A stretch of DNA of 64,000 nt. Origin: Patescibacteria group bacterium. GTDB taxonomy: Bacteria; Patescibacteriota; Minisyncoccia; Phycocordibacterales; UBA9973. The DNA lies in the NCBI GenBank assembly GCA_040390725.1, contig JAZJXT010000006.1, forward strand, positions 64,367 through 128,366, given 5' to 3'. The notes beneath the pieces were generated by a model that had not been told where the DNA came from, ran no database searches, and worked only from the letters and a program-made list of their open reading frames with translations. How positions within the stretch are numbered: the stretch's first letter is position 1; each line of letters begins with the position of its first letter. Below, piece by piece: positions 5,701 to 24,441 of the stretch. Made by a program: the position numbers and the translations under genes.

Positions 5701-5741
5701 AACTATTTCTTTTCTTGATTTGGCATAGGATTCTAAAATTT

Positions 5742-7799: not shown

Positions 7800-7834
7800 A
7801 AGTTTATTATAACACTTTTTTTGATTAGTATTAT

Positions 7835-8629: not shown

Positions 8630-8655
8630 AAAATTATTTTTTTAAAATTTATAAT

Positions 8656-9930
8656 TTAATTCATTTTCATATTAATTTCTTTATTGTTATTATTTATTTG
8701 CGAGAAAATATCCGGATTTTTATCTCCTGAAACTTCAAGCGTTGCCCAAGCGCCTTTATTCATCCTCGCGAGAGCATGATCAACAAGTAAATATTTTCCA
8801 GGAACATTTACAGTAAATTCCACAATTGACGCTCCACCAGGCAAGACTTCTGTAGTCTGCACATTTTTCAAAATTGCCGAACCTGTACCTATCGCAGCTT
8901 CAGGATAAACTTTATCAAAAATTTCTCCTATGATATGAAAAGATGAAATAAGATTAACTCCCCCATTGCCGACATAAATGCGAATTTTGTCGCCGACTTT
9001 TGCTTGCAAACGAGGAACACTTTCTATCTTTCCATTAAAAACCACATAATTCGGATTACCAGCAAGCAATGCATCTGAATCAAAAGGTACAAGGCCTAGT
9101 TTGCCTATTTGCCCCGCAGTATAAAATTCTCCCTGCATTATATAAAATTCCTTATCGACTTTATCTAAAGCAATTTGTGAATCTTTCGGGTCTACCATTA
9201 TGAGTCCGTATTGCCCGTGAGAATTATGCGTGCTGACATTCGGCATTGCGCAATGATAAACATAAAGGCCAGAGTTCAATGCTTTCCATTTAAAAGTTTT
9301 TGTTTCTCCGGGAGCAACATCGGAAAGCATAGCGCCTCCACCTTGACCCGTCACCGCATGCAAATCAATATTATGGTGATGCAAACTCGACTTGTCATTT
9401 TCAAGAGTAATCTCCATTGTATCGCCTTCTCTGACTCGCAACATAGGACCGGGAACTTGTTTATTGTAAGTCCAATAATTCAAATAAATTCCAGGTGCAA
9501 TTTCGGAAATAACTTCTTGCGCTTTTAAATGTATTCTCACGATTCCGTCCGCATCAGGCTTTTGAGCTTCACTCGGCACAGAGTCAGGGCTTGCGGAAAT
9601 ATCAGCAACTTTTTCAAAATTATTTTTATGAATTAAAAAATCCAAAATTTTAGAAAATGGAATTGAAGGAGGAACCCCGCCCGGAGCGTCGGAATGCATA
9701 AATGCCGGCATTGCAAAATCCGGCGCATAAGTTCTGTTTGAAATAAGTCCGGCAAAAAACGCGATAACAAATAAAATTATCGGAACGTAAATACCTTTTT
9801 GTTTTACAACATTCCAAACTGCCGGCTTTTTTATTAAATAAATAAAAATTGACAAAACAGCTAAGGCACCGACTAGCGCCGAAATCATTTCAAAAATAAG
9901 ATATGTGAACATCTCTTTATTATACCTCAA
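8656..9930 (-). CDS. nirK: copper-containing nitrite reductase (NirK)-like, N-terminally membrane anchored
   Basis: HHHNIDLHAVTGQGGG and YVYHCAMPNVSTHNSHGQYGLIMV closely match the NirK type-1/type-2 Cu ligand motifs (HNxDFHAATGALGGG, YVYHCAPPGMVPWHVxSGMNGAIMV); about 110 aa of N-terminal TM segments. Confidence 0.75.
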   Translation of the reverse strand: MRYNKEMFTYLIFEMISALVGALAVLSIFIYLIKKPAVWNVVKQKGIYVPIILFVIAFFAGLISNRTYAPDFAMPAFMHSDAPGGVPPSIPFSKILDFLIHKNNFEKVADISASPDSVPSEAQKPDADGIVRIHLKAQEVISEIAPGIYLNYWTYNKQVPGPMLRVREGDTMEITLENDKSSLHHHNIDLHAVTGQGGGAMLSDVAPGETKTFKWKALNSGLYVYHCAMPNVSTHNSHGQYGLIMVDPKDSQIALDKVDKEFYIMQGEFYTAGQIGKLGLVPFDSDALLAGNPNYVVFNGKIESVPRLQAKVGDKIRIYVGNGGVNLISSFHIIGEIFDKVYPEAAIGTGSAILKNVQTTEVLPGGASIVEFTVNVPGKYLLVDHALARMNKGAWATLEVSGDKNPDIFSQINNNNKEINMKMN

Positions 9931-9940
9931 AAATTAGATT

Positions 9941-11530
9941 TTACTTAACACTATAAGTAAACATCATACCGTCTTCCATATGTTCAGCTATATGGCAATG
10001 CGCCATCCAATTCCCCGCATTTGATGCATCCAGTAAAATATCCACGTACTGCCCTGCCGGCACCAATACTGTATCTTTCCAAGCTAAGTTTTTTTCTTCG
10101 ATTCCATTTTTATCAATTACGAGAAACCTATTGCCGTGAAAATGCATAGGGTGTTGCATCGGGTGCGTAATATTTCCATCGTTTGAAATACGAATTTTTA
10201 CTTTATCATCTTTTTTGAAAACCCAATTTATATCCATATTTTCTTTTTTAGTTTCTTGGTCAATAATTTTCCAAGAAAAAAAATCAGTTCCTGTGTCGGA
10301 CATCATATTCATCATCTTGCTGTCATTGTCCCATTCAATACCATTATCCAAACCCATTACCTCGCCCATAGTTTCATTTTGCATCATTGTACCATCCGGC
10401 ATTTTATGTTGCCCGCTACTCATCATGTTGCCCATCGCCCCCCTCAGCCCTGATGTAAGCTCCAAATATTTATCCGGTGTTTTATTAAAGTAAAGTCGAA
10501 AAGAATCGATGCTGGAAATTGTTTCTGGATGTGAGCGGAGTTTTAGAAAAGTTTCTGAATAAGATTTATCAACATTTTTATCTGACACAATAATTTTCCC
10601 AAGACTATATATATTGTTCGGAGTTTTATTTTGCAATTCATAAGTGCCAGATTTATCAAAAAGAACTTCTACTATAGCGCGCTCTGAAGGGCCGAGAATT
10701 ACAGAGTCCACCCACGTATCATTTTCATAAGCACCATTATCAGCACCAACGAGTTTCATTTTTACTCCATTGATGCCGATATTAAAAGGACGCGCAGTGG
10801 AAGAATTAATAATATAAAAACGAGCGACACTGCCTTTATCAACATTCAAAGAATAATTTTCTTCACCATTCACAAGCATTACATTTCCATATCTACCCAT
10901 CATTATATGATCGGAAGATTTTTTATTAAATGGAACCACGCCATTTTTATCCATCAAAATATCATTCACAAACAAAGGCGCTTCCATATTAACTGAATCC
11001 CAGTAATTTATATTAGCTGGCTCTACAATATATGCTCCATATTGCCCGAGCGGTTGCGCATAATCCTCGCGAAAGTGCGGATGATACCAATATATTCCAA
11101 CATCTGGGAATTTTATTTTATAAACAAAACTTTCACCAGGCTTTATCGCATCTTGGTCAATACCTATCACGCCATCGTATTTATCTTCGAGGCGCACTCC
11201 GTGCGAATGTAGCGCAGTGTCTACATCAGTATTATTTTTAAAATTTATTGTAATCTCCGAACCTTGGGAAACTTTTATCGTCGGCCCAGGTATCATGCCA
11301 TTATATGCGAGCATTTTTGTCTCTTTGCCATTTACTATTTTTTTAACAATCTCCGCAGTCATATCATAGGTATCGCCATTCTTTAGCTCGACTGTCTGAC
11401 TAACCTTTGTGTCCGATAAATCATCCACATCTAGAGAAAAATATTCACTTTTTTTGTGAAATCCAAAATACAATAAAACACTAACAGCAACAATAATCAA
11501 AACTATAATTATTTTAAAATTTTTCTGCAT
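9941..11530 (-). CDS. multicopper oxidase
   Basis: Four Cu-binding motifs: HSHG, WYHPHF, HPMHFHG, HCHIAEHMEDGMM; N-terminal signal/TM. Confidence 0.8.
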   Translation of the reverse strand: MQKNFKIIIVLIIVAVSVLLYFGFHKKSEYFSLDVDDLSDTKVSQTVELKNGDTYDMTAEIVKKIVNGKETKMLAYNGMIPGPTIKVSQGSEITINFKNNTDVDTALHSHGVRLEDKYDGVIGIDQDAIKPGESFVYKIKFPDVGIYWYHPHFREDYAQPLGQYGAYIVEPANINYWDSVNMEAPLFVNDILMDKNGVVPFNKKSSDHIMMGRYGNVMLVNGEENYSLNVDKGSVARFYIINSSTARPFNIGINGVKMKLVGADNGAYENDTWVDSVILGPSERAIVEVLFDKSGTYELQNKTPNNIYSLGKIIVSDKNVDKSYSETFLKLRSHPETISSIDSFRLYFNKTPDKYLELTSGLRGAMGNMMSSGQHKMPDGTMMQNETMGEVMGLDNGIEWDNDSKMMNMMSDTGTDFFSWKIIDQETKKENMDINWVFKKDDKVKIRISNDGNITHPMQHPMHFHGNRFLVIDKNGIEEKNLAWKDTVLVPAGQYVDILLDASNAGNWMAHCHIAEHMEDGMMFTYSVK

Positions 11531-11550
11531 ATTTTTATTATACTACTAAA

Positions 11551-13587
11551 TTATAATTTAGCTCGTCGCAATAATATAGCATTAAATGCCACAATAATTG
11601 TAGAAAAAGACATAAATACCGCAGCGAGGACTGGTTGGAGTATTATTCCTTTCGATGCCAAGACTCCAGCTGCAAGAGGAATAGCCACGACGTTGTACCC
11701 TGTCGCCCAGAAAAGATTTTGAATCATTTTATTGTAGGTCAAACGAGATAAATTAAATATTTTTGGAATATCGCGCAAATCACTTTTTACTAAAATTATT
11801 CCCGCAGATTCTATCGCTACATTTGTACCAGCACCTATCGCTATACCTATGTCCGCTTGGGTAAGGGCCGGAGCGTCATTGATACCATCGCCCACCATAG
11901 CGACTTTCAAGCCACGACTCTGTAAATCTATTATTTTTTTAACTTTATCTTCCGGTAAAACTCGAGCAAAATATTCATCGAGGCCAATCTCATTCGCCAC
12001 GCGTTTTGCTGTCTCCTCACTGTCTCCGGTAATCATCGCGACACGCATGCCAAAAGTTTTTAGTTTTGCAATTACTTCTTTTGATTCCAAACGAACAGCG
12101 TCGGCTACTGCAATTTCTCCAATTTTTTCACCATTTTTCTCAACAACAATTTCATCCCCGCCATGAGTGCCGACAAAAATTATTTCACCATTAACTTTTG
12201 CTTCTGCTCCCCGACCGGGTATTCTTTTAAAATCAGTAGATGGTTTGACTTGAAGCATACGAATTTTTGCTTCTTCAACTATTGCCTTGGCTATCGGATG
12301 CTCAGAATTAACATTCACGGAAGCCGCAAGTATAAGTGCATCATCTGAAATTGCTGACGTAACTTTAAATTTCGCTTCAGTTAGCGTGCCTGTTTTATCA
12401 AATAAAACTATATTTATATTTCGCGCTGATTCGAGAGCTCGACGTTCTTTTACTAGTAAACCATTCCGCGCGGCGAGAGTCGTGGAAATAGATGCAACCA
12501 GTGGTACTGCGAGCCCGAGCGCATGAGGACAAGTGATGACAAGAACTGCGACGAGCCTTTCTGTCGCTGTCACTATTCCCCCACCGACAAAAATCCAAAT
12601 AGAAAATGTTAAAGCTCCTGCCACAATCGCAATGATAGTTAAATAAAAAGCTGCTCTATCGGAAAGCATTTGCAATCGTGATTTTGACGCTTGCGCATTA
12701 GCGACGAGCTTCATCACACCAGCAAGGAAAGTATCCTCACCTATTTTTTCAATTTCCACTTTCAAACTTCCATCACCATTTATAGAACCGGCGATAACAA
12801 ATGCGCCTACAGATTTTTCAACGGGACGGGATTCACCAGTGATCACTGATTCATTTAATTCTGATTGTCCTTCAATAATTTTTCCGTCAGCCGGTATTTT
12901 TGAACCTGGTTTTATTAAAACAATATCGCCGATTTTTAATTCACTTAATGAAATAATTTCGGTTTTATCACCACGAATAACTTCTGCTTGATCCGGCAAA
13001 AGTTTTGCAAGTTCTCGCAATGCACCTTGAGCGCCCTGCACAGACTTCATTTCAATATGATGCCCTAGAAGCATAATGGCTATCAATGATGCGAGCTCAA
13101 ATAAAAGATCATGACCCGTGCCGAATAAAATAGAAAAGAAACTATAAACATATGCCGAGGTTACGGCTATTGCGATAAGGGTCATCATGCCCGGCAGTTT
13201 CGCCCGCAATTCGCGATACGCACTGGTTAAAAAAATTAAACCGCAATAAAAAAATACAATACTACCTAAAATTAAAAGTAAATATTGCGAGCCGTAAAAA
13301 ACAGGTGCCTTTATATGAAAAAGCATATATGCCATTTCAGAATAAAAAAAGATTGGCACAGTCAAAACTAACGCAACCCAAAACTTCGTCAAAAATGACG
13401 AAGTTTTATGACCTGCATGCTTATCAAAATCCTGATTTTTCTCGTGTTCCTTGTGTCCTAAATCATTTTTTTTCTTCATCGGGACAAGATTCATCCCGCA
13501 TTCAGGGCACATCCCCGGCTTGTCAGATACAACCCTCGGATGCATTGGGCACGTGTATATTATGTTGTTTATATTATTTTGCATCAT
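11551..13587 (-). CDS. copA: heavy-metal (copper) translocating P1B-type ATPase, CopB-like with CPH motif
   Basis: DKTGTLT phosphorylation site, TGD, GDGINDAP, transmembrane CPH motif (ITCPHALGLAVP); N-terminal Cys-rich zinc-ribbon-like CPMHPRVVSDKPGMCPECGMNL. Confidence 0.9.
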   Translation of the reverse strand: MMQNNINNIIYTCPMHPRVVSDKPGMCPECGMNLVPMKKKNDLGHKEHEKNQDFDKHAGHKTSSFLTKFWVALVLTVPIFFYSEMAYMLFHIKAPVFYGSQYLLLILGSIVFFYCGLIFLTSAYRELRAKLPGMMTLIAIAVTSAYVYSFFSILFGTGHDLLFELASLIAIMLLGHHIEMKSVQGAQGALRELAKLLPDQAEVIRGDKTEIISLSELKIGDIVLIKPGSKIPADGKIIEGQSELNESVITGESRPVEKSVGAFVIAGSINGDGSLKVEIEKIGEDTFLAGVMKLVANAQASKSRLQMLSDRAAFYLTIIAIVAGALTFSIWIFVGGGIVTATERLVAVLVITCPHALGLAVPLVASISTTLAARNGLLVKERRALESARNINIVLFDKTGTLTEAKFKVTSAISDDALILAASVNVNSEHPIAKAIVEEAKIRMLQVKPSTDFKRIPGRGAEAKVNGEIIFVGTHGGDEIVVEKNGEKIGEIAVADAVRLESKEVIAKLKTFGMRVAMITGDSEETAKRVANEIGLDEYFARVLPEDKVKKIIDLQSRGLKVAMVGDGINDAPALTQADIGIAIGAGTNVAIESAGIILVKSDLRDIPKIFNLSRLTYNKMIQNLFWATGYNVVAIPLAAGVLASKGIILQPVLAAVFMSFSTIIVAFNAILLRRAKL

Positions 13588-13804
13588 GAGAACAAGAATT
13601 CATTTCTTCTTTCTTGTGAATTATACCATCAATGAAAAATCCTATACTAATTATTCCTGTTGCTATTGCATCGTTGAATAAATGCGCCTGATCCATACCT
13701 AGCAATGTTCCCTTTGTACTTTGTGTAATCCATGCACCGATTACGGAAAGCGTTGATAAAAGTAATGCGATGCGAGCGATTGTTATAGCGAATTTTGATT
13801 TCAT
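13574..13804 (-). CDS. small membrane/secreted hypothetical protein in the copper operon
   Basis: 76 aa with hydrophobic N-terminus, between csoR and the ATPase; overlaps the ATPase start by 14 nt (operon-style coupling). Confidence 0.3.
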   Translation of the reverse strand: MKSKFAITIARIALLLSTLSVIGAWITQSTKGTLLGMDQAHLFNDAIATGIISIGFFIDGIIHKKEEMNSCSHDAK

Positions 13805-13867
13805 ATATTTTATTTAAATGTTAATAATTAATAATAGAGAAAAAATTATTTATAAATTATTTATAAA

Positions 13868-14134
13868 TTATTTGCGTTTCAAGCGGTAAACTTTTAATAT
13901 TTCCTCTTTGGCTTTATTTTCTTTACCTTTTTTAATCTGGTCCACAGCGCAACAACTAAGATGATTCTCCATTAAAGCGTCTTCCACTCCAGAAAGAGCT
14001 TGTTTGACTGCCGAAGTTTGAGTAATGACATCTATGCAATATTTGTCATTTTCGACCATTTCCCGAATACCTCGAACTTGCCCCTCAATAATCTTGAGCC
14101 GTCTTTCCAACTTATTTTTAATATCTTTTCTCAT
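13868..14134 (-). CDS. csoR: CsoR/RcnR-family metal-sensing transcriptional repressor
   Basis: LERRLKIIEGQVRGIREMVENDKYCIDVITQTSAVKQALSGVEDALMENHLSCC carries the CsoR C-H-C metal-ligand pattern. The ORF caller extends to 14179, but that extension would cover the operator palindrome, so the start is placed at the Met at 14134. Confidence 0.8.
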   Translation of the reverse strand: MRKDIKNKLERRLKIIEGQVRGIREMVENDKYCIDVITQTSAVKQALSGVEDALMENHLSCCAVDQIKKGKENKAKEEILKVYRLKRK

Positions 14135-14146
14135 AATGGATAGTAT

Positions 14147-14163
14147 ATACCCCCAGGGGGTAT
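14147..14163. promoter_or_regulatory. candidate CsoR operator (perfect GC-rich inverted repeat)
   Basis: ATACCCCCAGGGGGTAT, a 17-bp perfect palindrome 13 bp upstream of the csoR start; resembles known CsoR boxes (TACCC...GGGTA type). Confidence 0.6.
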
Positions 14164-14243
14164 CTGTCAAGTAAAACAATAATGTCTACTATCCTTACAT
14201 ATGTAGACTTAGTAGACAAAAGAAATAATAATGATTAGTAATT

Positions 14244-14648
14244 TTAATTCACAACCCCTACCCCTTTCATCATAGGATGAATCTTGCAGTGATAACTATA
14301 CGTACCGGAATTTGCAAAAGTAAAACTAAAGGATTCACCCGGAGCGAGTGTCGGTGAATTTAAAAGATTATCAGAATCAGATGTGACTGTGTGTGGAACT
14401 GAATCATTATTCGTCCAAGTAACCTTTATGCCAGCTTTCACTGAAAGAGTAGCTGGATTAAATGCAAAATTTTTCATGCTTACTGATGCTGTTTTTGACT
14501 CTGGAACATTATTACTGACATTATTTACAGGAACGTTACTTTCCGGTGCAGGTGCCAAGGCTTTATTTGCATTATTTTTAAAAGCTAAATCATAAATTAC
14601 AAAACCAATTACTACTATTACCAAAACTATAATTATTTTTTTAGTCAT
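14244..14648 (-). CDS. cupredoxin (plastocyanin/pseudoazurin-like blue copper protein), membrane anchored
   Basis: 134 aa; N-terminal TM; type-1 Cu ligand pattern ...PHTV...YSYHCKIHPMMKG (H...C..H..M). Confidence 0.75.
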   Translation of the reverse strand: MTKKIIIVLVIVVIGFVIYDLAFKNNANKALAPAPESNVPVNNVSNNVPESKTASVSMKNFAFNPATLSVKAGIKVTWTNNDSVPHTVTSDSDNLLNSPTLAPGESFSFTFANSGTYSYHCKIHPMMKGVGVVN

Positions 14649-14671
14649 AAAATTTTAAATTATTAATAATT

Positions 14672-15080: not shown

Positions 15081-16763
15081 TTATAACATAGGTATTTTTA
15101 AATAAAATGTCGACCCTTTGCCTTCCTCAGAATCAAATGTTATTTCTGCGCCTATTTTTTTTGAAAGCATAAAAGAAACGTAAAGACCTATACCCATTCC
15201 CTCAGGCTTCACTTTCCCAGCATTTGATGCTCGATAGAATTTATCAAAAACATGTTTTGCTTCTTCTTTTGGTATACCTATACCATTATCTTTTACAAAA
15301 AACACGGCTGCACCTTTTTCTGTTTTAAAATCCAACACAACCTCCTGATCAGCCGGTGAATAAAAAATTGAATTTGATAAAAAATTAGTCAGAATACTTT
15401 TTACCACCTCCAAATCAGTTTTGACTGTAATTTTTTTACCGAAAACTGCATTATTTTTTAAAACAATATCATTTTTCTTAGCTACAGCCTCCACTAACAA
15501 AATAAGATCATCGTAAAAATTTAAAACATCAACCTCTTCTTCTTTGATGTTTGCAGTTGTACTATCTAAGCGAGTCACATTTAAAAGACTAACAACAAGC
15601 TTGATCATTTTTTCATTAGTCAAACTAATATTTTCCACATAAGATTTTTGTTTTTCATTTAGAGGCCCGAGCATGCCGTCTTGCAAAGTTTCAACTAGCC
15701 ATTTAGTACCGGAAAGCGGAGTGCGAAGCTCGTGTGAAGCCAATGATAAAAATTCCATCTGTGACTTTTTTAGCTCTTGTTCATATTTTAGTGATGCTTC
15801 GGAGGAGATCAGCCTTCTTGAAATATAAAAAGTAATAATGAGCAAAAGAGAAAATGCCACAAAAATAACACCGTAAACAACCAATATTGATTTGATAGTA
15901 TCTGCTTGCGCAACGAGAGACATGTTTGCCAAATTCCTTTTTATTTCAGAGATGCTAAAGATAGCCAAAAATACAAAAGGCGAAGCCAGAAGAAAAAAAA
16001 CAATAGCGCGAAGCGTCCCCTTTGGAGTAAATGAATAAAAAGGCTTTGAGGTTTCTGGAATTTTTTCAGAAATATTTTCCACATTTTTACTATTTTCTTT
16101 TTTAACATAAAAAGTAGCATAGAAAAATGGTAAGCCAAAAATACCAGCCGCAACTTTAAAAATAAAACCAAAAAGCATTGCTTGCGCTAATGCCGTGCCA
16201 GAAATAATGCCATAAAAAGCTATCGAAAAGAAAATTATACTATCAATGGCTTGACCTAATATGTTTGAAAAAATATCTCTTTGCCAAAGAGGAAGTTTTT
16301 CAGACTTTTGTGCCAACCGGCCATAAAACCAAATGTTAAACTTTTGAGCAAAAAAGTAAGCCGAGATGCTAGCTAGGAAAATTCTCGGGGCAAAAGTAAA
16401 AAGAGTATTAAGGGCTTGATTAACAGTAGCTGATGCCGACGAACCTATAAACTGCACAGTCAGCTGGCCCATCAATACGAAAAATACCGTAGCACCGAGT
16501 CCAACCCAAAAACTTTTCCTTCCCTCTTTTTCGCCATAATGCTCTATCAAGATATGCGCAGCTAAAAATACCGCAGCATAAAAAATATTACCCACGTTTG
16601 TGGTAATACCAAAAACAGAAACAAGCTTGGCGCCAAATACGCTTATCAAAATCAAGTTAATAGCAATAGAAGCATGGAGCCAACGCTTGCCTAAATTGAA
16701 ACAAATAAAAACGAAGCCAAAAGTAAGCAGGGCGGTAATCACAAAAATAAGCTCATTTATCAT
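15081..16763 (-). CDS. sensor histidine kinase with large polytopic N-terminal membrane domain
   Basis: H-box SLASHELRTPLSG, HATPase N/G boxes (VKDNGIGIP, GMGIGLYV); about 330 aa of N-terminal TM helices. Confidence 0.85.
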   Translation of the reverse strand: MINELIFVITALLTFGFVFICFNLGKRWLHASIAINLILISVFGAKLVSVFGITTNVGNIFYAAVFLAAHILIEHYGEKEGRKSFWVGLGATVFFVLMGQLTVQFIGSSASATVNQALNTLFTFAPRIFLASISAYFFAQKFNIWFYGRLAQKSEKLPLWQRDIFSNILGQAIDSIIFFSIAFYGIISGTALAQAMLFGFIFKVAAGIFGLPFFYATFYVKKENSKNVENISEKIPETSKPFYSFTPKGTLRAIVFFLLASPFVFLAIFSISEIKRNLANMSLVAQADTIKSILVVYGVIFVAFSLLLIITFYISRRLISSEASLKYEQELKKSQMEFLSLASHELRTPLSGTKWLVETLQDGMLGPLNEKQKSYVENISLTNEKMIKLVVSLLNVTRLDSTTANIKEEEVDVLNFYDDLILLVEAVAKKNDIVLKNNAVFGKKITVKTDLEVVKSILTNFLSNSIFYSPADQEVVLDFKTEKGAAVFFVKDNGIGIPKEEAKHVFDKFYRASNAGKVKPEGMGIGLYVSFMLSKKIGAEITFDSEEGKGSTFYLKIPML

Positions 16764-16943
16764 AAACTAATTATAGCAAATTTTAAGAAAAGACTATATT
16801 TTTTAAATTGGGGTCGCTTACTGGTCAAGTTCAGAACTGTTAATTGGTATAGTATATCACAAGACCTTCAGCTTAGTGGAATAAAAAACCTTGGAATATA
16901 CAAAAATAACTTAACCTATAAGTAACGCCCCCCCCCACCACCA

Positions 16944-18092
16944 CTATATTTGGGATATTTTATTTTCATAATGATAAATATCAACATCATACTTTCGTTT
17001 CTTAATAGTCTCATCCAAGCCTTTTGCTGTAGGATACAATAATCCACTAACATTTAAATATGGCGATATGTGCTCATTCATTACCCAACCTTTATTTCTA
17101 ATTCTTTTTAATTTTTTGGGCTGTAATTCGTGTACCATACCAATAAACCCCGCTACAAGTTCTGCATAGGCAGACATATGTTTTACCTCACCAAAGGATA
17201 TTAAATCCTTATTTGGAAGAAAAGTGTCAGTAGAATACTGACTTAAGTCTAAATCATTCAATATAGAAATATCACAACATATATTGGCACGGTATTTACT
17301 TTTTTCACTATATGATTTTGTAGCTACTCTTAACTGATGTCTTATTTGGCATTTTTTACCATCTTTTTCACAAATCACATAACTATATTTATTAGGTGCA
17401 CCTTTTGTTGTAAACTTCAGCTTAAAAATTTTCTTTTTCTTAAAAACTGGGCTAATGATTTGAATTACCCATCCTTTCTTTTCGTACCATTTTATAGTGG
17501 AAGCAAAAGTATAAGCTTCAAATACTTGATTAACTATATTCCCAAAAGAATTTAAGCGAGGTTTTTCACTTTCAAAAAACTTTCTTAGTTTTAATTTTGC
17601 TTCGGCTTGGTCAAATAAATAATTATATAAGCGTTCATCATTTCTTACTTCCTTATAATGGTCAATAATTTGAGAAAAATATTTAGTATTTGATAGTAAG
17701 GCTTTTACATCATCACTAAGTAAATGTAATAATTTTTCAGCAAGTTTATCTCCCAGAACAACATTTTTATTTCTCCCTGAAAATTCTGTTTTCCCTAACC
17801 TAAATTTATCAATATTAAGTTCTTTTAGAATATCTACTGTGTCCTTAGTGGCACTAGCCCCATCTGCTAACATTTTTCTTGTATAAAACAAAAAACATAA
17901 TACAGTAGCTTCTTCCGCTATAGTTTTCATCCTAGCAATCTTCTCTTTCTTCTCTTTTGAGCTATCAATTTTATTTAAAATCCTATTTATATACTCTGAA
18001 GGAAATAAATTTTGCCATACATACGAATACAAAGAACTATATCTCATAGATATATATCTGGGTGCACTTTTTATTACATCAGAAATATTCAT
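16944..18092 (-). CDS. hypothetical protein, possible PD-(D/E)xK-like nuclease C-terminal region
   Basis: 382 aa; C-terminal CCDISILNDLD...SFGEVKHMSAYAELVAGFIG resembles a D...E-x-K nuclease core; weak and by eye only. Confidence 0.4.
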   Translation of the reverse strand: MNISDVIKSAPRYISMRYSSLYSYVWQNLFPSEYINRILNKIDSSKEKKEKIARMKTIAEEATVLCFLFYTRKMLADGASATKDTVDILKELNIDKFRLGKTEFSGRNKNVVLGDKLAEKLLHLLSDDVKALLSNTKYFSQIIDHYKEVRNDERLYNYLFDQAEAKLKLRKFFESEKPRLNSFGNIVNQVFEAYTFASTIKWYEKKGWVIQIISPVFKKKKIFKLKFTTKGAPNKYSYVICEKDGKKCQIRHQLRVATKSYSEKSKYRANICCDISILNDLDLSQYSTDTFLPNKDLISFGEVKHMSAYAELVAGFIGMVHELQPKKLKRIRNKGWVMNEHISPYLNVSGLLYPTAKGLDETIKKRKYDVDIYHYENKISQI

Positions 18093-18107
18093 ATAAGTGA
18101 TAAATTT

Positions 18108-18974
18108 TTAAGCCCTTGGTGTTGTATGCCACATACTTTGTAATATTGGGTAACTTATTTTTACTTCTGCAACAAGTTTTTCATATTCTGATTGGAACTC
18201 ACCAACAAATACCTTTGTATTACAAAGCTCTACCATAAGCTGTGCCATTATGTACATAAACTGAACTATCCAAAAAACCTCATTGTTCGTAGCACCACTC
18301 ATTTGATTTGTAAAACTTGGATGTGTGTAATTTGAATGTGACCTGTAATATTTATTATAAAAAGTCGATGGGCTATCTTTTTTCCAAAGTGCCAAAGTTT
18401 TTGATGATTGTATCGTAAAATATGGTTGATTAAAGATTTGTTCGAATCTCGGAAATGAAAAACCGTTCCTTTCTAGAAAACCATTAGAAAAAGAATTTAT
18501 ATCAGAAGGAAATGAAATATCCTCAGAAGAAAGTACGCCTCCCATAAGTTTTAAAAATCTGTCATATTCGTCTTTTAACTCAGTGCTCTCTATTGCAACG
18601 AAACGGAACATGTCGCTAAAATATAAAAGGTATTTACCTATAAAAATACCTAATTGGGTCTTTTCATCTTGATTAACTAAATAGAGTAATTCACCATAAT
18701 TTTCCAAAAGAATCCTTGTAAGCGGTATATAAAATTGAAAGTTCTTTAAATCTTCTTCTGCTTCAACTTTTTTAATTAAAAATTCATATTGTTGCCAAAA
18801 ATTCTTTAAATACAAATAAATAGCCTCGTTTTTTAAAAACTGCTTTTGTTCGTCTAGGGTTGAAAGGTTTTCAAATTTTATTAAAAACCTTTCTTCAATT
18901 TTAGTAACTATTTTTTGACCAATAGATAAAGAAAATTTTAAAGCAACTAATTGTTCTTTTATTTGAATAACCAT
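18108..18974 (-). CDS. hypothetical protein, co-oriented partner of the 16944-18092 gene
   Basis: 288 aa; 15-bp spacing to the downstream gene suggests an operon; no recognisable family. Confidence 0.4.
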   Translation of the reverse strand: MVIQIKEQLVALKFSLSIGQKIVTKIEERFLIKFENLSTLDEQKQFLKNEAIYLYLKNFWQQYEFLIKKVEAEEDLKNFQFYIPLTRILLENYGELLYLVNQDEKTQLGIFIGKYLLYFSDMFRFVAIESTELKDEYDRFLKLMGGVLSSEDISFPSDINSFSNGFLERNGFSFPRFEQIFNQPYFTIQSSKTLALWKKDSPSTFYNKYYRSHSNYTHPSFTNQMSGATNNEVFWIVQFMYIMAQLMVELCNTKVFVGEFQSEYEKLVAEVKISYPILQSMWHTTPRA

Positions 18975-19496
18975 AATTATATTATTTATTTTGTAACTTC
19001 CTTATTATCTCATATACAAACCTGTTTTAGTTTATTTTTTCAGTATATAGCTTTAAGCTTACAGAATAAACATTAAAATGCAACATATTTCCTCTCCTAA
19101 AAATTAAAAAATCTTAATACCTACCTTACCATACCCCTAAAACACAAAACTCAATAAAATAAAGGTATTTTACGAACTAGCATGTTAAGAAAAGATAAGG
19201 TTGAAGGTTAGCATACCCAACAATTTTAGATGCTTATTAAATAAAGATTTGTAGAAAAAGGGATGCTAATATTTGCTAACCTTTTCATATTATTTTTAAT
19301 TTATCACTTACTTAGATTTTGTACAAGCAAAAGGGAAAATCCTAAAAATAAAAAAAGCACACTAAAAAACGACCAAATTTGAGCCTTATTTTACAAGGCT
19401 TATTTAGGACGATTTTCGACCTTTGGAGTTATAATGCGTTTTACGGCTCTTGGAATTTTAAAACTGAGAATCATGACCTAGCACTATAATTAGTGC

Positions 19497-19841
19497 TTAA
19501 AACCCATTATGTTTTAAACATTTATCGTATTGAATTTTTGTAGCTTCTTTCGTTTCTGTTTTTTCTGGTGATGGTGGTCTTACCGCTGTATCTTTTTCTA
19601 GCATATAACAACTAAATGAACTTAGGCGACCTTGGCTATCACTACATTCTCCATTACTTAGTTTTATTTTATTTATATCAGCTTGTTCTTTTGTTATACC
19701 AATATCAGCAGGGGTTACTTCTGTAAACCAAGAACAATTCTTTTTTATCATTACTGGACGTAATTGAAACCAATAAAAAAGGAATCCTAAAACCAATACT
19801 ACGATTATTACTATTTCTTTATTTTCTTTTATTTTTTTCAT
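19497..19841 (-). CDS. small secreted/membrane-anchored hypothetical protein
   Basis: 114 aa; N-terminal hydrophobic segment; a hairpin (agcactataattagtgct) lies immediately after the stop. Confidence 0.4.
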   Translation of the reverse strand: MKKIKENKEIVIIVVLVLGFLFYWFQLRPVMIKKNCSWFTEVTPADIGITKEQADINKIKLSNGECSDSQGRLSSFSCYMLEKDTAVRPPSPEKTETKEATKIQYDKCLKHNGF

Positions 19842-19847
19842 ATAATT

Positions 19848-20963
19848 TTATTTAAACCAATTAAAGATTTTTTGATACCATTTTATTTTTCTTACTGGTT
19901 CTGGGTTAACTGGAATTTCTAAAACAGGAGCTACTGAAGGCATATTAAGCGTCGTTATATCTTTTGGTGTAACAAGAAAGTTGCCTGTTGAATTTTTAGA
20001 TGGAATAGAAATCTTTTTAGGTGTGATTTGATTTTGTATTTTTAACTCTACAGGAGCTACTATTGGAATTTGTACGGGTGTTTTTACTTGTGTTGGGTCG
20101 TCAACTGTTAAATTAAATGAGGTACTTCCAATTTCAACATCCTTAACCACGACCCTAGCTTTTAAAATAAAGACACCAACCTTTTTAGGAGTTAGCTTTA
20201 AAGCAAAAGCACCATTGTTGCCGTTAAAGTTTAGAAAACTAAGTTCGATACTTTCTGGTAGGTCATAGAATCTAAGCACTGGGGTCTCCTCAATAGGAGT
20301 ATAATTTATGTTGGCAGAGTAAGAAGTATTTATCATCGCATTTGGTAAATAATAGGTAGAAATTTTTAATGGCTTAGTGCAAGGAGGATTATTATTATCT
20401 GAAGGTAGTGAACTATCCCAGACACTTCCCGAACCGTTATACTTAACACACAAAGCATTGAATCTTATTTGAATACTAGTCTCAGCTCTTTCTGTTTGCT
20501 GTCTAAGGGTATCTTCGTGTTCTTGTAAGCACTGGTTGCGAGAAGTTACCGTAGCATTAAAAAGTTCTATACTTCTACGACATGAATCTAATTTATCTTG
20601 TCCTAACGTTGAAGAAGTATCAAAAGAAGAACCGAGCAAGCCACTTCTAGCACTCATAGCTCTTTGTGTGGCTCTTTGAGCATCAACTTCTTGCTGAACT
20701 CTTGCATAGTCTGATTCAGTTGAGCAAGATAGACCATAAACAATTTGTGGGCAAGAATCGTAAGAGGTAGTACGACATTCGTCAGTATCAGAAAAATAAA
20801 CAGAACTATTTACCCATCCATCATTACATTGAACCTTACCAGTATATGTTGCCCCCACTGAACAGTTAACACCACCATGATATGAACAAGCCCCCGAAGT
20901 TGCGAACACTGAGATAGTTGGAATAATAAAACTAAACAAAACAAATAATATAATTTTTTTCAT
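19848..20963 (-). CDS. secreted Cys-containing hypothetical protein
   Basis: 371 aa; clear signal peptide (MKKIILFVLFSFIIPTISVFA); Cys-rich N-terminal part, Pro/Val-rich C-terminal part. Confidence 0.5.
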   Translation of the reverse strand: MKKIILFVLFSFIIPTISVFATSGACSYHGGVNCSVGATYTGKVQCNDGWVNSSVYFSDTDECRTTSYDSCPQIVYGLSCSTESDYARVQQEVDAQRATQRAMSARSGLLGSSFDTSSTLGQDKLDSCRRSIELFNATVTSRNQCLQEHEDTLRQQTERAETSIQIRFNALCVKYNGSGSVWDSSLPSDNNNPPCTKPLKISTYYLPNAMINTSYSANINYTPIEETPVLRFYDLPESIELSFLNFNGNNGAFALKLTPKKVGVFILKARVVVKDVEIGSTSFNLTVDDPTQVKTPVQIPIVAPVELKIQNQITPKKISIPSKNSTGNFLVTPKDITTLNMPSVAPVLEIPVNPEPVRKIKWYQKIFNWFK

Positions 20964-20988
20964 AAGATTTTTTTAATTGATAAACCTA

Positions 20989-21178
20989 GTGAGTGGGTAG
21001 CAAAAATCCCACTACCAGAGGTGAAGTCTTACGACTTCCATGCAAGTTTCCCTGCACGACGCACGATACGCACCCTGATAATGGGGTTTCTAGTATCGTG
21101 CAATTTTTTCACCATGCCTCTATTTCTAAAGGTTTAGGCTACTGATTAAGTTGTAAATAAAGGATAACATATTTGTAC
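20989..21178. ncRNA. structured GC-richer element 1 plus conserved 30-bp box (candidate ncRNA / replication-origin element)
   Basis: Nested hairpins (gaagtc-ttac-gacttc; gcacgatac-N23-gtatcgtgc followed by a T-run) at 20989-21110, then the box agttgtaaataaaGgataacatatttGtac at 21149-21178; a diverged second copy lies at 21440-21617. Confidence 0.35.
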
Positions 21179-21419
21179 TTTTCTTACTATGCTTACGTAT
21201 TTTTTCTTGAACTAAGAAGTGTAATTTTAATGCCGTAGAAAAGTAATATAAATATGGATTAGCGGTGACAAAATTGTATTCTGATTCAGTTATTTTTAAA
21301 ATTGTATTATCAACACAGTAAAAATATCTTTTCTTATGTTGAATAACTACTGCAACATATTGGAAAACTTCAACAACATTACTTTCAACAAGACTAATAT
21401 TTAATTTTGTTATTTCCAT
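21126..21419 (-). CDS. hypothetical small protein (doubtful ORF)
   Basis: 97-aa ORF that overlaps the repeat box; may be spurious. Confidence 0.2.
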   Translation of the reverse strand: MEITKLNISLVESNVVEVFQYVAVVIQHKKRYFYCVDNTILKITESEYNFVTANPYLYYFSTALKLHFLVQEKIRKHSKKSTNMLSFIYNLISSLNL

Positions 21420-21439
21420 AACTTTATTTAATTAATAAT

Positions 21440-21617
21440 AAAAAAACCCTTTCCGAATACGAAGAAAGAGTTTACGACTATATATCTTTCCCCGTATGGG
21501 GCTGAATTTAGCACCGTTGCCTTTTGGCTGGTTGCTGGTAGGTCATAGAGTCAGTACTCTCGCTACACTCTCGATAATTCCCTATTTAGTTGTAAATAAA
21601 TGATAACATATTTACAA
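21440..21617. ncRNA. structured element 2 plus conserved 30-bp box (second copy)
   Basis: Shares ttacgact and cc(c)gtatgggg hairpin features with element 1; box agttgtaaataaaTgataacatatttAcaa at 21588-21617, 439 bp from the first box. Confidence 0.3.
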
Positions 21618-21944
21618 TTCCCTAGCCACATTTGCCAATAGTTAAATATAAGTAAAATGTTGTTTAAATTGAGTTTTTTGTCCACATTTTAATAACATAT
21701 TTGCCCACTTTTTAATTTTGAGAGTTTTTTTAGTGTGCTATAATAAAAGCACAACTGACAAGAAATTGTCAAAAATATAGTAGATATAAATTATCTTTTT
21801 TCGTTATAGTTTTGAAGTAAGTTTTTTTCTGAAATAAAACCAAAAACGAATCACAAGAAACTTTCGCGGTCAGCGAAAAGGCTATTAAAAGTTGCAAATT
21901 TTACGAGAAGCACTGAAGCAAGATTTTTAAAATAAGAAAAATAA

Positions 21945-22505
21945 ATGAATGAATTAGAAAAAAAAGAAAAAGGAAAGGGTTGGTTTAGGGTAGAAAATAT
22001 CTTTATTGATAAGTACGCAGAAATAATTGGCTACACCGCTTCAATCATTTATATATGTATCAGAAGACACGAGTATTTAAACAAAAAAGTTGCTTTTCCG
22101 TCAGAAGAATTTATTGCAAAAAAACTTGGCATGAACACAAGGACAGTTATTAGACACCTAAAAATATTAAAAGCTCACAATTTAATAATCGTAAAAAAAT
22201 TAAAACACAATGGGAAGCACTATAATAATACATATTTATTGACTCCAGCAAATGAATGGTTGATTAAACCAGGAGAATTTACGCAATCCCCTTACGTGAC
22301 AAATAATACTCCTACACCTGACAAAAAAGACATAGACCAAGTGACAGAAAGTCACAGTAATAAGACTAATATAAAGAAGACTAATATAAAAAGTGATTCT
22401 TTAAAAGAATCAGGAGAAGATACAGAAAAAGTCTCTAGTAATTTCTTAAAAGCAATAAATGCACATAGAAAAAAACTTAATATTCAGCCTGCCATCCCCG
22501 CATGA
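21945..22505 (+). CDS. winged-helix DNA-binding protein, putative replication initiator/regulator of the integrated element
   Basis: 186 aa; N-terminal FPSEEFIAKKLGMNTRTVIRHLKILKAHNLI has a wHTH appearance similar to phage/plasmid replication initiator N-domains; Lys-rich tail. Confidence 0.45.
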   Translation: MNELEKKEKGKGWFRVENIFIDKYAEIIGYTASIIYICIRRHEYLNKKVAFPSEEFIAKKLGMNTRTVIRHLKILKAHNLIIVKKLKHNGKHYNNTYLLTPANEWLIKPGEFTQSPYVTNNTPTPDKKDIDQVTESHSNKTNIKKTNIKSDSLKESGEDTEKVSSNFLKAINAHRKKLNIQPAIPA

Positions 22506-22687
22506 GTACTTTAGCCGAAACATTACTAAACCTAAGTCCCGAAGAAAAACGCAACTTTGTTGGATTCTTTGAGCTACTTTTAAAGGTCGATAAAAGAGTG
22601 AACCCTCACCTGTACCCTATAAAATCTCTAGTGCTGAGTAACCCACTTTTGTGGCAAGATGCCGACTTGCAATGTAAAGTAGTGTAA
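22502..22687 (+). CDS. small hypothetical protein
   Basis: 61 aa; start overlaps the preceding stop (ATGA coupling). Confidence 0.3.
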   Translation: MSTLAETLLNLSPEEKRNFVGFFELLLKVDKRVNPHLYPIKSLVLSNPLLWQDADLQCKVV

Positions 22688-22705
22688 AGTATACTTAATT
22701 TATAT

Positions 22706-22882
22706 ATGAAAAATAAACCTTTCTACAAAGCAGAAGACCTCGCAAAAATGTTAGAAGTAAACATAATGACAATTTACCGTTACATAAAAGCAGGTCGCTT
22801 GAAAGCGTACAAAATCGGTCGTGATTTTAGAATTGATAAAAAAGAGTTTAATAAGTTTTTAGAAAAAGTTAAGACTAAATAA
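22706..22882 (+). CDS. excisionase-family HTH DNA-binding protein
   Basis: 58-aa ORF, below the track cutoff: MKNKPFYKAEDLAKMLEVNIMTIYRYIKAGRLKAYKIGRDFRIDKKEFNKFLEKVKTK, the typical excisionase/MerR-like HTH; ends 2 bp before the recombinase start. Confidence 0.65.
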   Translation: MKNKPFYKAEDLAKMLEVNIMTIYRYIKAGRLKAYKIGRDFRIDKKEFNKFLEKVKTK

Positions 22883-22884
22883 AT

Positions 22885-24399
22885 ATGAAAGCTATAATTC
22901 TTGCAAGAGTATCAACAGAAGAACAAAAAGAAGCGGGTAATTCCCTGCCTGCTCAAGTTGCTCGTATAGAAAGTTATTGTAAAAAAAATAACTTTACAGT
23001 TATTGACACCTATAGTTTCGATGAAAGTGCCTACAAAGAAAAACGAGACGAATTTGATAAAATTCTATCAAAGATAAACGAACAAAAGGAAAAAATTGCA
23101 ATTTGTTTTGATAAAGTTGATAGATTCTCTAGAAATGTTTTTGACCAGAGAGTATCAGCCCTATACGAATTAGCAATGAAAGATGAAGTAGAACTACACT
23201 TTGTCTCAGACAACTTAATTATCACTCCAAATATTTCCGCAACGGAGAAATTTCACTTTGGGATAAATTTAGGTCTTGCTAAATATTATTCTGATGCTAT
23301 TAGTGATAGCGTAAAGCGTACTTACGAAAAAATGAGAAGAAATGGTGTTTATCCAAGCAAGCCACCACTGGGATATGTTCGGTCAAAAGATGCTTATGGT
23401 AAAAGCACAATTATTCTCGACCTTGAACGCTCTCACATAGTTACTAAAATGTTTGAATTATATGCTACTGGAAACTACTCGATTGAAACTTTACGCCAAG
23501 AAGTAATAAAAATGGGATTAAAGAGTTACGGTGGTCTTCTTCCTCCAAAAAGTTGTATTGATAATATGATTAGAAATTCTTTTTATTATGGAATTGTTAC
23601 ATCAAAAAAATATCCTCCGTACGCACACAAATATCAAACTATAACCACTAAAGAAATTTTTGATAAATGCCAAGAAGTTAGAGAAAAAAAACGAACCAGC
23701 CGACCAAAATTTCTTTCGAAAGACTTTATTTTTAAAGGCTTACTTACTTGTAAAAATTGCAACTGCCTACTAACCCCAGAAATGCACCAGAAAAAAAGCG
23801 GGCTGGTTTTTATCTACTACTCTTGCAAAAACACAAAAGGAATATGTAAGCGTTTTTATATACCAGAAAAAAAATTACTAGAACCAATTATTAAAGACTT
23901 GGAACTTTTTGAAAAAATACCCGAAGAAGCACAAGAATATCTTGTAAAAGAATTAAGACAAGCAACAGAATCAGAAGTTGTCTTTCATAAAAACCAAGTC
24001 AGTCGCATAAGAGCCGAATACGACAGGGTTAAGCAGAGAGACGATAATCTGCTTGAAATCTTCTTAGACAAAAGTATTGATAAGGATACTTACGATAAAA
24101 AGCATCAAGAATATCAGGACAAACTCCAGCTTTTAGGTATTGAGAGCGAAGAACACACAAGAGCTGATTTTGATTATCAAACTACCGTTGCCACAATCTT
24201 TTCTATATCACGTAGAGCAAAAAGTATTTTTGAAAGTTCTGACGCTCACGAAAAAAGAGCATTTTTAAATTACTTAATTCAGAACCCGACTGTAAGTGAA
24301 AAAAACCTAGTATATACACTACGTTCTCCATATAATCTACTGCTAGAAATGACTGGTCGTCCTTCTTGGGGTGACTACTGGGAGTTGAACCCAGACTAA
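22885..24399 (+). CDS. large serine recombinase (integrase)
   Basis: 504 aa; resolvase/invertase N-terminal catalytic domain (AIILARVSTEEQKEAGNSLPAQ, catalytic Ser), recombinase domain and a zinc-ribbon (CKNCNC...CKNTKGIC); the 3' end overlaps tRNA-His. Confidence 0.9.
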   Translation: MKAIILARVSTEEQKEAGNSLPAQVARIESYCKKNNFTVIDTYSFDESAYKEKRDEFDKILSKINEQKEKIAICFDKVDRFSRNVFDQRVSALYELAMKDEVELHFVSDNLIITPNISATEKFHFGINLGLAKYYSDAISDSVKRTYEKMRRNGVYPSKPPLGYVRSKDAYGKSTIILDLERSHIVTKMFELYATGNYSIETLRQEVIKMGLKSYGGLLPPKSCIDNMIRNSFYYGIVTSKKYPPYAHKYQTITTKEIFDKCQEVREKKRTSRPKFLSKDFIFKGLLTCKNCNCLLTPEMHQKKSGLVFIYYSCKNTKGICKRFYIPEKKLLEPIIKDLELFEKIPEEAQEYLVKELRQATESEVVFHKNQVSRIRAEYDRVKQRDDNLLEIFLDKSIDKDTYDKKHQEYQDKLQLLGIESEEHTRADFDYQTTVATIFSISRRAKSIFESSDAHEKRAFLNYLIQNPTVSEKNLVYTLRSPYNLLLEMTGRPSWGDYWELNPD

Positions 24400-24441
24400 G
24401 AGCTCCACAAGCTCGTGTGCTACCGCTACACCATAGCCACC
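24367..24441 (-). tRNA. tRNA-His (GTG)
   Basis: Manual fold: G-1 paired with C73, acceptor GTGGCTA/TAGTCAC, D-arm with GG, anticodon loop TTGTGGA (anticodon GTG), T-arm CTGGG-TTCAACT-CCCAG, encoded CCA. Confidence 0.8.

Follow-up and report, generated by a model that had tools for sequence, protein, structure and literature searches.

A 64,000-nt stretch of contig JAZJXT010000006.1 from a Patescibacteria group bacterium (assembly GCA_040390725.1, positions 64,367 to 128,366 of the forward strand), called the window from here on, carries a putative integrated mobile element whose right end lies in a tRNA-His gene. The integrase of this element is a large serine recombinase (LSR), encoded by a plus-strand open reading frame (ORF) at 22885–24399 whose product of 504 aa contains the Resolvase, Recombinase and Zn_ribbon_recom domains of Pfam. 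On the minus strand, ARAGORN places a tRNA-His(GTG) at 24367–24440, and Rfam agrees. The G-1 of this tRNA, at 24441, pairs with C73, and the whole (24367–24441) folds as an intact cloverleaf with an 8-bp acceptor stem. With the stop codon included, the last 33 nt of the LSR ORF (24367–24399) are also the 3′ end of the tRNA, which is the presumed integration target. An earlier note on this DNA had described the recombinase gene as running 33 nt into the minus-strand tRNA-His, and the ORF, Pfam and ARAGORN confirm those coordinates.

The window protein is a true large serine recombinase. Its catalytic domain (PF00239) scores 73 bits against a cut-off of 23, and PF07508 and PF13408 both exceed their cut-offs. 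Residues R8 and S10, in an RVST motif, are invariant in an alignment of 30 homologues. An AlphaFold model made with 30 homologues has a mean pLDDT of 79 and shows the catalytic domain, the recombinase domain, the zinc-ribbon strands and a long coiled coil at residues 347–451, formed by helices 347–394 and 400–451. Foldseek matches this model over its full length, at probability 1.0, to solved serine integrases including those of Bxb1, PhiC31 and Listeria LI. Since a sequence search against the PDB matches the catalytic domain alone, we regard the protein as a distant member of the serine integrase family, and its recombination activity is predicted from these domains and the modeled fold. The last 11 residues fall below a pLDDT of 50, and the part of the tail encoded by tRNA sequence is predicted to be disordered.

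The LSR gene is the last of four rightward genes, all of which are intact ORFs. The first, rep186 (21945–22505, +), encodes a winged-helix (wHTH) protein of 186 aa that resembles replication initiators. It matches HTH_36 in Pfam at 1.5e-8, DnaD_N and RepC weakly, and PHROG replication-initiation families at 1e-10 to 1e-8. The second, F4 (22502–22687, +), encodes a conserved small protein of 61 aa with homologues at the same position in at least 24–27 related loci. The third (22706–22882, +) encodes a 58-aa excisionase-like HTH_17 protein and ends 2 bp before the LSR start codon. It matches PF12728 at 1.3e-13 (51 bits against a cut-off of 27) and also PHROG excisionase families. Our locus comparison covers 80 fetched loci with homologous recombinases; HTH_17 homologues at 57–86% identity occur in 63 of these, always upstream of the LSR and on the same strand. 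The protein is therefore a likely candidate for a directionality factor or other regulator of excision, to judge from its family and position. Both the excisionase-like gene 2 bp ahead of the recombinase and the replication-type wHTH gene upstream of it had been recognized in the earlier note, and the domain matches uphold both assignments.

The integrase, excisionase and replication-initiator families are the only PHROG families matched in the window. A prophage remnant, which the earlier note had entertained, or a phage satellite with a serine integrase could supply the same three, and some distant homologues of the LSR are indeed filed as 'Bacteriophage sp.' contigs. Those records, however, are unverified scaffolds of 6–9 kb in which a host-type tRNA adjoins the LSR. 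The PHROG scan of the window found no virion structural, packaging or lysis families; no capsid, tail, terminase or lysis family occurs in the 6–10-kb relatives either, whose cargo is mostly restriction-modification, and IMG/VR holds no relative above 28% identity. We consider a phage origin of this kind highly improbable and have dropped that option. Pfam and NCBIfam scans of the window found no relaxase or type IV secretion genes.

Recombinases ending in tRNA genes across Patescibacteria

Relatives of the window LSR are abundant. Among 8000 candidates scored, 1793 proteins reach E < 1e-20, and the best 120 have 56–73% identity, nearly all of them carrying a Patescibacteria name. A scan of one genome per GTDB species gave 373 LSR loci. 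In 46 of the 80 loci compared, the LSR stop codon falls inside a minus-strand tRNA called by ARAGORN (tRNA-Asn in 37, Gln in 4, His in 3 and Asp in 2). In 13 further loci, a tRNA-Asn directly follows the LSR with its anticodon loop split by an insertion of 200–570 nt, and was overlooked by ARAGORN. About seven more are cut by contig ends within tRNA-like sequence, which brings the LSRs stopping in a tRNA gene to about 66 of 80 overall. Since the same arrangement recurs at so many loci, the overlap in the window is not due to chance.

The 13 split genes are all tRNA-Asn(GUU) (L001, L009, L019, L020, L028, L031, L044, L053, L058, L061, L071, L074 and L076). Their common break at TTA|AC was considered as a crossover in the anticodon loop, and this was rejected because the insertion is a group I intron: it carries a conserved GATGATATAGTCC motif, which is P7-like, several loci have an HNH endonuclease ORF (family F21) in it, and the 5′ half of the tRNA resumes 200–570 nt further on. 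Group I introns of this kind have already been described in Patescibacteria (PMC13011429), with no mention there of LSR elements in their neighbourhood.

The C-terminal tails of the aligned LSRs read as reverse-complemented tRNA 3′ ends (..SPNWLRGQDSNL, ..RGAYRESNSN). A conserved W in the tails is encoded by TGG, which is the reverse complement of CCA. Tails of the His type belong to the LSRs closest to that of the window (65–73% identity) and tails of the Asn type to more distant ones, so the target tRNA tracks the phylogeny. Seven loci (L024, L027, L034, L046, L049, L056 and L072), and also the proteins P0011 and P0052, have tails that are not tRNA-like, departing from tRNA-like sequence right after TGGCTC. 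Three of these (L027, L034 and L049) share a conserved C-terminal extension of about 35 aa (..DWAKEYPYPTISL.EIK..). The seven tails were considered as possible attP forms; because of the shared extension, these LSRs may instead be a sub-family with a different target or end, though the tails may also be those of the free form. The targets found here and in the distant homologues described below are mostly tRNAs with GUN anticodons, the queuosine family (Asn, His and Asp, with Tyr in Neochlamydia), together with Gln, Leu and Glu. The dominance of GUN anticodons may be a coincidence or may reflect shared features of the T-arm and acceptor.

The position of the attachment sites comes from five independent relatives in which attL and attR are recognizable as direct repeats of the last 15–24 nt of the tRNA: L006, L007, L010 and L050 (tRNA-Asn) and L164/L165 (tRNA-His). 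The attL copies sit 6–10 kb to the left of the tRNA, and in L007, L010 and L164 they directly follow a host terminator hairpin. The attL and attR copies match over the discriminator base and the 3′ strands of the acceptor stem and T-stem, and the match ends at the first bases of the T-loop. Since it stops there in all five, we infer that the crossover occurs at the T-stem/T-loop, and that attP holds the ~20 nt that end the tRNA and also form the last codons of the LSR. By analogy with L006, L007, L010, L050 and L164, the attR of the window would lie at 24340–24389 (+), with an element-derived P arm made of the last LSR codons and the 3′-terminal ~20 nt of the tRNA, and its crossover is predicted at about 24378–24386. 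This would be a compact case of one stretch of DNA serving as protein-coding sequence, tRNA and recombination site. Third codon positions in LSR codons 451–495 carry about twice the gene-wide baseline of information, and amino acid identity there is not raised, which argues for a constraint at the DNA level on the end of the gene. The disorder predicted for the tail would explain how the protein tolerates a sequence dictated by a tRNA.

Unoccupied copies of the target also exist. Searching metagenomes with a 43-nt query from the host-derived portion of the tRNA-His returned 13 contigs carrying a tRNA-His that is identical over the 43 nt and identical or nearly so elsewhere, most of them with the same 3′ end. 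None has an LSR, HTH_17, rep-like or cargo gene beside the tRNA. The flanks all differ and are not syntenic with the window, hence these contigs do not amount to a strict empty-site comparison. They do bear on the opposite picture named in the earlier note, a gene order conserved as a core region with no empty tRNA-His: since 13 contigs have the tRNA and none of the element genes beside it, the gene order at this locus is not that of a conserved core region.

The rightward backbone of the family, as defined by clustering of ORFs, runs F3, F6 or F29; then F4, F1, HTH_17, variable cargo, the LSR and the tRNA. F4 is about 54 aa across the family and matches the small frame at 22502–22687 in the window. 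F1 is a protein of 376 aa without a Pfam match, present in 63 of the 80 loci; its PDB search was empty, and 2 of 32 members gave weak Rep_trans matches at E ~1e-3. Restriction-modification genes make up most of the cargo found between HTH_17 and the LSR: an N6/N4 methylase together with a type III Res helicase, or a C5 methylase and a partner. The related elements are 6–10 kb long, their flanking genes are wholly different between loci, and both cargo and target tRNA vary. In one sub-family, an HTH_36 protein stands in for F1 and the first genes, and the cargo lies to the left and is divergently transcribed. The window element and L164 belong to this sub-family; their LSRs are 67% identical and their HTH_36 proteins 35%.

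At one locus (L073, 1500–1800), the LSR tail is followed by an attP-like junction, TGGCTCCGGAGGTAGGGA|ATCTTTTCTT..., then by some 165 nt that look like an element's left end, and finally by an intact tRNA-Asn with a terminator of its own. Either a second copy, in tandem or rearranged, or an assembly that joined a circle to the chromosome could account for this order.

The overlap shared across the family, the att repeats of the relatives and the unoccupied tRNA-His copies together support the proposal of the earlier note that an integrative element ends at this tRNA. We think it very likely that the region from ~16.81 to ~24.39 kb is an integrated element of ~7.6 kb, belonging to a Patescibacteria LSR family that inserts into the 3′ part of tRNA genes. 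A literature search on Patescibacteria/CPR serine recombinases, integrative elements and tRNA-Asn found no description of the family, which is apparently a very common but undescribed class of tRNA-targeting serine-integrase elements.

Cargo, structured RNAs and the left end

Left of rep186, the genes and RNAs all point leftwards. The earlier note had seen two structured repeat elements here; they are indeed present, and Rfam gives them names. The first is a SAM-I riboswitch (RF00162, 21444–21580, −), with its aptamer at 21479–21580 scoring 57.2 bits against a gathering score of 44.4, followed by a terminator-like hairpin read from 21473 to 21444 and then by a small ORF, o97 (21126–21419, −). 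The second is a LOOT RNA (RF03000, 21023–21140, −), which scores 77.1 bits against a gathering score of 46.4 and covers model positions 1–121. Directly upstream of each RNA lies a copy of a 30-nt repeat of family D14, at 21145–21174 (−) ahead of LOOT and at 21584–21613 (−) ahead of the riboswitch. The copies are 93% identical, and their position ahead of both RNAs suggests a promoter-like role. A scan for sigma-70 promoters was uninformative in DNA this AT-rich (31 sites against 33 expected). The core of the repeat, AAATATGTTAT, occurs at 21162–21174 and 21601–21613 and a third time at 21700–21712, about 90 nt upstream of the riboswitch copy. It could also be a binding site for the wHTH protein, instead of or besides a promoter element.

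The LOOT RNA recurs in the family. A covariance model built from seven LOOT matches and run on 87 sources found 19 copies. At no fewer than 10 independent loci, LOOT occupies the gap between the first backbone gene and the divergent genes to its left, pointing away from that backbone gene. The genes that follow LOOT differ by locus: type III restriction-modification in L036 (LOOT at 6672–6790), a methylase in L166 (2349–2468), Fic in L164 (7807–7927) and secreted proteins in the window. LOOT thus looks like a leader of the element's cargo operon. A literature search found no function or genomic context for it. The SAM riboswitch of L164 (8169–8269, +) stands directly ahead of the HTH_36 gene, and that of the window ahead of o97. 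SAM-dependent DNA methylases are frequent among the genes of related elements.

The first gene after LOOT is s371 (19848–20963, −), which encodes a 'secreted', Cys-rich cargo protein without a match in Pfam or PHROG. Its N-terminal 66 aa are 67% identical to the product of a leftward gene adjoining backbone gene F6 in L029. Next comes s114 (19497–19841, −), a small membrane or secreted protein that is 47% identical over its full length to the 118-aa product of the gene that comes first after LOOT inside L164. The 'secreted' label of s114 and s371 refers to N-terminal hydrophobic segments judged by eye. The two leftmost cargo genes, u288 (18108–18974, −) and u382 (16944–18092, −), have no assigned function and no match in Pfam, PHROG, PADLOC or NCBIfam; u288 sits in the part of the window with the lowest GC and is included from its position between u382 and s114. 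A homologue of u382 (P0242, 70% identity) occurs in another Patescibacteria island, L193/L194, which has a HEPN_AbiU2 neighbour and an LSR of its own overlapping a tRNA-Glu by 39 nt. The same island encodes a homologue of o97 (41% identity over 75 aa), an ORF for which Pfam and PHROG have no family match, and its LSR is unrelated to that of the window.

The C-terminal ~225 aa of u382 are 50–67% identical to hypothetical proteins of about that length in Flavobacterium, Leptospira, Phycisphaerae, Ignavibacteriales and others, which have no Pfam family. This is very high conservation for so patchy a spread across phyla, as expected of a mobile gene of defence or nuclease type. Eight nucleotides past the u382 stop codon there is a run of nine C (16928–16936) followed by ACCACCAC, which is unusual in this AT-rich genome.

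The left end of the element is less sharply marked than the right. The earlier note had called this boundary undefined because serine recombinases leave only a 2-bp crossover. That reason does not hold for this family, in which relatives keep a repeat of 15–24 nt, and the window offers a degenerate candidate for attL, aaatTGGGGTCGCTTACTGGTC, at 16806–16826 (+). The candidate lies in the gap between a host histidine-kinase gene and u382, where the GC content begins to drop. A motif common to the P′ arms of L164 and L050, CGCTTNYYGGTC, has one match in the 64-kb window, at 16815–16826 and on the right strand, where 0.02 matches are expected. The same place bears a likeness to the 3′ end of the tRNA-His, at 16808, with a score of 18 and p ~0.04–0.13 in shuffled intergenic sequence. 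Its first score had been stronger (p = 0.0007). A G4·U69 wobble in the acceptor stem had been considered as a scar of chimera formation and was rejected: the unoccupied tRNA-His copies carry the same pair, hence the pair is native, and the score of the candidate attL weakened accordingly. Exact and near-exact searches of the window found no tRNA-His 3′ remnant, and local alignment of the gap (16764–16943) to the P′ regions of five relatives was not significant. With moderate confidence we take 16806–16826 as the left junction, the motif and the tRNA remnant being alternative readings of the same bases.

Gene content points to the same place. The att-delimited element L164 contains homologues of LOOT, the SAM riboswitch, s114 and rep186. 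The homologues of u382 and o97 occur together in L193/L194. The GC content is lowest at about 17–20 kb, falling to 0.284 at 18–20 kb against ~0.36 overall, a dip that bears out the earlier note's remark that the content here differs from the flanks. On these grounds, together with the CGCTTNYYGGTC match, we place the left end at ~16.8 kb as the likely position, so that the element probably spans ~16.81–24.39 kb, or ~7.6 kb; the remaining probability is shared between the gap at 18975–19496 and a core of 3.3 kb.

That smaller element (~21.1–24.39 kb) would consist of the wHTH, F4, HTH_17 and LSR genes only, with s371, s114, u288, u382 and the two RNAs left as host DNA. It would account for the want of a clean attL at 16.8 kb, and it coincides with a contig of 3291 bp in the Logan assembly of the same sample, which covers 21105–24395 and breaks at 21134 and inside the tRNA. 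These breaks had been considered as evidence of excision and were rejected as such, since tRNAs, the 30-nt repeat and LOOT are where they occur, and repeats of this kind explain them. The placement of an s114 homologue and LOOT inside the att-delimited L164, the co-occurrence of u382 and o97 homologues in another LSR–tRNA island, the leading of leftward cargo by LOOT in at least 10 related loci and the position of the lowest GC in the window at 18–20 kb all speak against the 3.3-kb core, which we consider distinctly unlikely. Of the sizes from 3 to 7.6 kb allowed by the earlier note, the upper is thus favored, since other LSR–tRNA islands contain homologues of s114, o97 and u382.

The histidine kinase directly left of the element (15081–16763, −) has an unusual sensor architecture, with an N-terminal Vut_1 membrane domain (of the YhhQ-type queuosine-precursor transporter) fused to HisKA and HATPase_c; on the other side, the element is flanked by a P-type ATPase gene. 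Beyond the kinase gene, at about 5000–14650, a copper and metal cluster borders the element, with two multicopper oxidases, a CopA-like ATPase, a CsoR-type repressor, a cupredoxin and Nramp by the gene calls of L162. It looks accessory.

Mobility, known systems and meaning

The mechanism we propose for the ~7.6-kb element is as follows. The element's attP would span the 3′ end of the LSR gene and duplicate the 3′-terminal ~20 nt of the tRNA. Recombination of attP with the tRNA at the T-stem/T-loop would exchange the 3′ end of the host tRNA for the copy on the element, which would keep the tRNA functional and move the old 3′ end to attL. In the window, the host side would thus have supplied the TAA stop and the 3–5 LSR codons before it (about L-N-P-D). 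The HTH_17 protein would likely serve excision as directionality factor or regulator, and the wHTH protein would help the excised circle to replicate. The divergent leftward unit, led by the SAM riboswitch and LOOT RNA, would carry the variable cargo, here secreted proteins and two unassigned genes and in relatives often restriction-modification genes.

Several observations weigh against an element of this extent that has moved as proposed. There is no clean attL in the window and the tRNA-like match at 16808 is weak; the CGCTTNYYGGTC match was noticed after that spot had been inspected, though the motif was defined from other loci. Most relatives have no detectable attL within 10 kb. The window copy also lacks F1, a protein that 63 of the 80 loci encode. 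We found neither an excised circle nor an attP junction, nor an empty site in synteny with the window: phage and plasmid collections and IMG/VR hold no free form of a close relative, the best identity in IMG/VR being at most 28%, and relatives with a similar P-type ATPase (~72% identity) show no synteny with the window, their neighbourhoods differing and having no tRNA-His.

Much of this would also be expected if the locus were ancestral, with no recent insertion, and the LSR and its partners were a fixed, domesticated remnant, kept for a host function or persisting in an immobile state. Such a remnant would fit the degenerate or missing attL of this copy and of most relatives, the want of a free form, the missing F1 and the extreme commonness of the family across Patescibacteria. 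It fits poorly with four operon ORFs that are all intact, with clean att repeats in five relatives, with cargo and target tRNAs that vary between loci, with the existence of unoccupied tRNA-His sites, and with flanking genes that are wholly different from locus to locus. On balance, we regard a fixed remnant as unlikely, though it keeps a larger share of our belief than the 3.3-kb core. It concerns current activity and not origin, and it can hold for the window copy while the family is mobile. Because its attL is degenerate, the integrated element in the window may itself be an old copy that is no longer able to excise.

The recombinase has many characterized counterparts. It shares its three-domain architecture and coiled coil with Bxb1, PhiC31, Listeria A118/LI, TP901-1, CcrA/B of SCCmec and XisF, of which XisF and CcrA/B show weak NCBIfam similarity to it, but identity to characterized serine integrases is only ~12–17% in structural alignments. 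Those enzymes use an attB in protein-coding or intergenic sequence, and their attP and attB have little identity. The window family differs in that its target is a tRNA gene and its predicted attP overlaps the stop region of the integrase's own gene. SCCmec inserts at the 3′ end of rlmH, and the window element likewise targets the 3′ end of a conserved gene.

The closer parallel is with islands that tyrosine integrases insert into tRNA genes, which Williams in 2002 is said to have divided into classes by sublocation in the T-loop or the anticodon loop. Shared with the window family are the placement of the integrase gene beside the tRNA 3′ end, the replacement tRNA 3′ segment and the displaced fragment left as a direct repeat at the far end; the difference is that the recombinase here is of the serine type. 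In the fusellovirus SSV1, and in the integration-dependent immunity of mycobacteriophages, tyrosine integrases act on an attP within coding sequence, so that integration alters the encoded product. In SSV1 this product is the integrase, the target is a tRNA, and integration splits int in two. The window element is alike in having its predicted attP inside the coding sequence of the integrase and a tRNA as target, but only the last few LSR codons and the stop would change, in a tail predicted to be disordered.

For serine integrases (S-Ints), Mageeney et al. 2020 noted that they were previously not known at tRNA genes, counted only 14 islands at t(m)RNA genes among 297 with an S-Int, and asked that such targeting be proven by experiment. 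Distant homologues of the window LSR, at 30–32% identity over the full length, occur on plasmid 24 of Legionella adelaidensis (L191, NZ_LR134433.1), on Neochlamydia pS13 (L192) and on gut metagenome scaffolds (L189 and L190). They share a C-terminal motif (..KPFD..L..RPKWL..), and their LSRs stop in or beside a minus-strand tRNA: Asn in Legionella, Tyr in Neochlamydia, and Leu and Glu in the gut scaffolds. The Legionella tail (..RPKWLPGQDLNL*) overlaps its tRNA-Asn by 30 nt, and the Neochlamydia homologue is truncated beside its tRNA-Tyr. The backbones of these loci differ from that of the family in lacking HTH_17, F4 and the LOOT module, and the Legionella locus has, in addition, a tyrosine recombinase and an AbiE pair. 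A literature search found none of the distant homologues studied as a tRNA-targeting LSR. Within Patescibacteria, the LSR that overlaps tRNA-Glu by 39 nt (L194, 4327–6049) represents a second LSR family (25% identical). Since the homologues in Legionella and Neochlamydia also lie in or beside a tRNA, the arrangement of LSR and tRNA is a principle not confined to Patescibacteria.

Taken jointly, these features suggest a more ambitious picture, which we offer tentatively and think unlikely to hold in full. There would be an undescribed, phylum-wide class of mini-islands with attP in the 3′ end of the integrase gene, in which the host tRNA rewrites the C-terminus and stop of the integrase as a readout of the integrated or free state. 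LOOT would be the element's own regulatory leader for a cargo operon, often one of restriction-modification, and the SAM riboswitch would couple expression of the element to the supply of methyl donor.

Serine integrases are prized tools of genome engineering that have hardly been documented at tRNA genes (PMC7192596), and here a very large natural family appears to be directed to them. Patescibacteria are only beginning to be genetically tractable, and the attB sites, tRNA-Asn, His, Gln and Asp, are present in every genome; if the reading is true, the family would be a ready-made set of tRNA-specific serine integrases for engineering these bacteria. The family gives a genomic context on mobile elements to the orphan LOOT RNA and shows a SAM riboswitch carried on a mobile element. 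It also points to small islands full of restriction-modification genes as a main route of gene flow in Patescibacteria.

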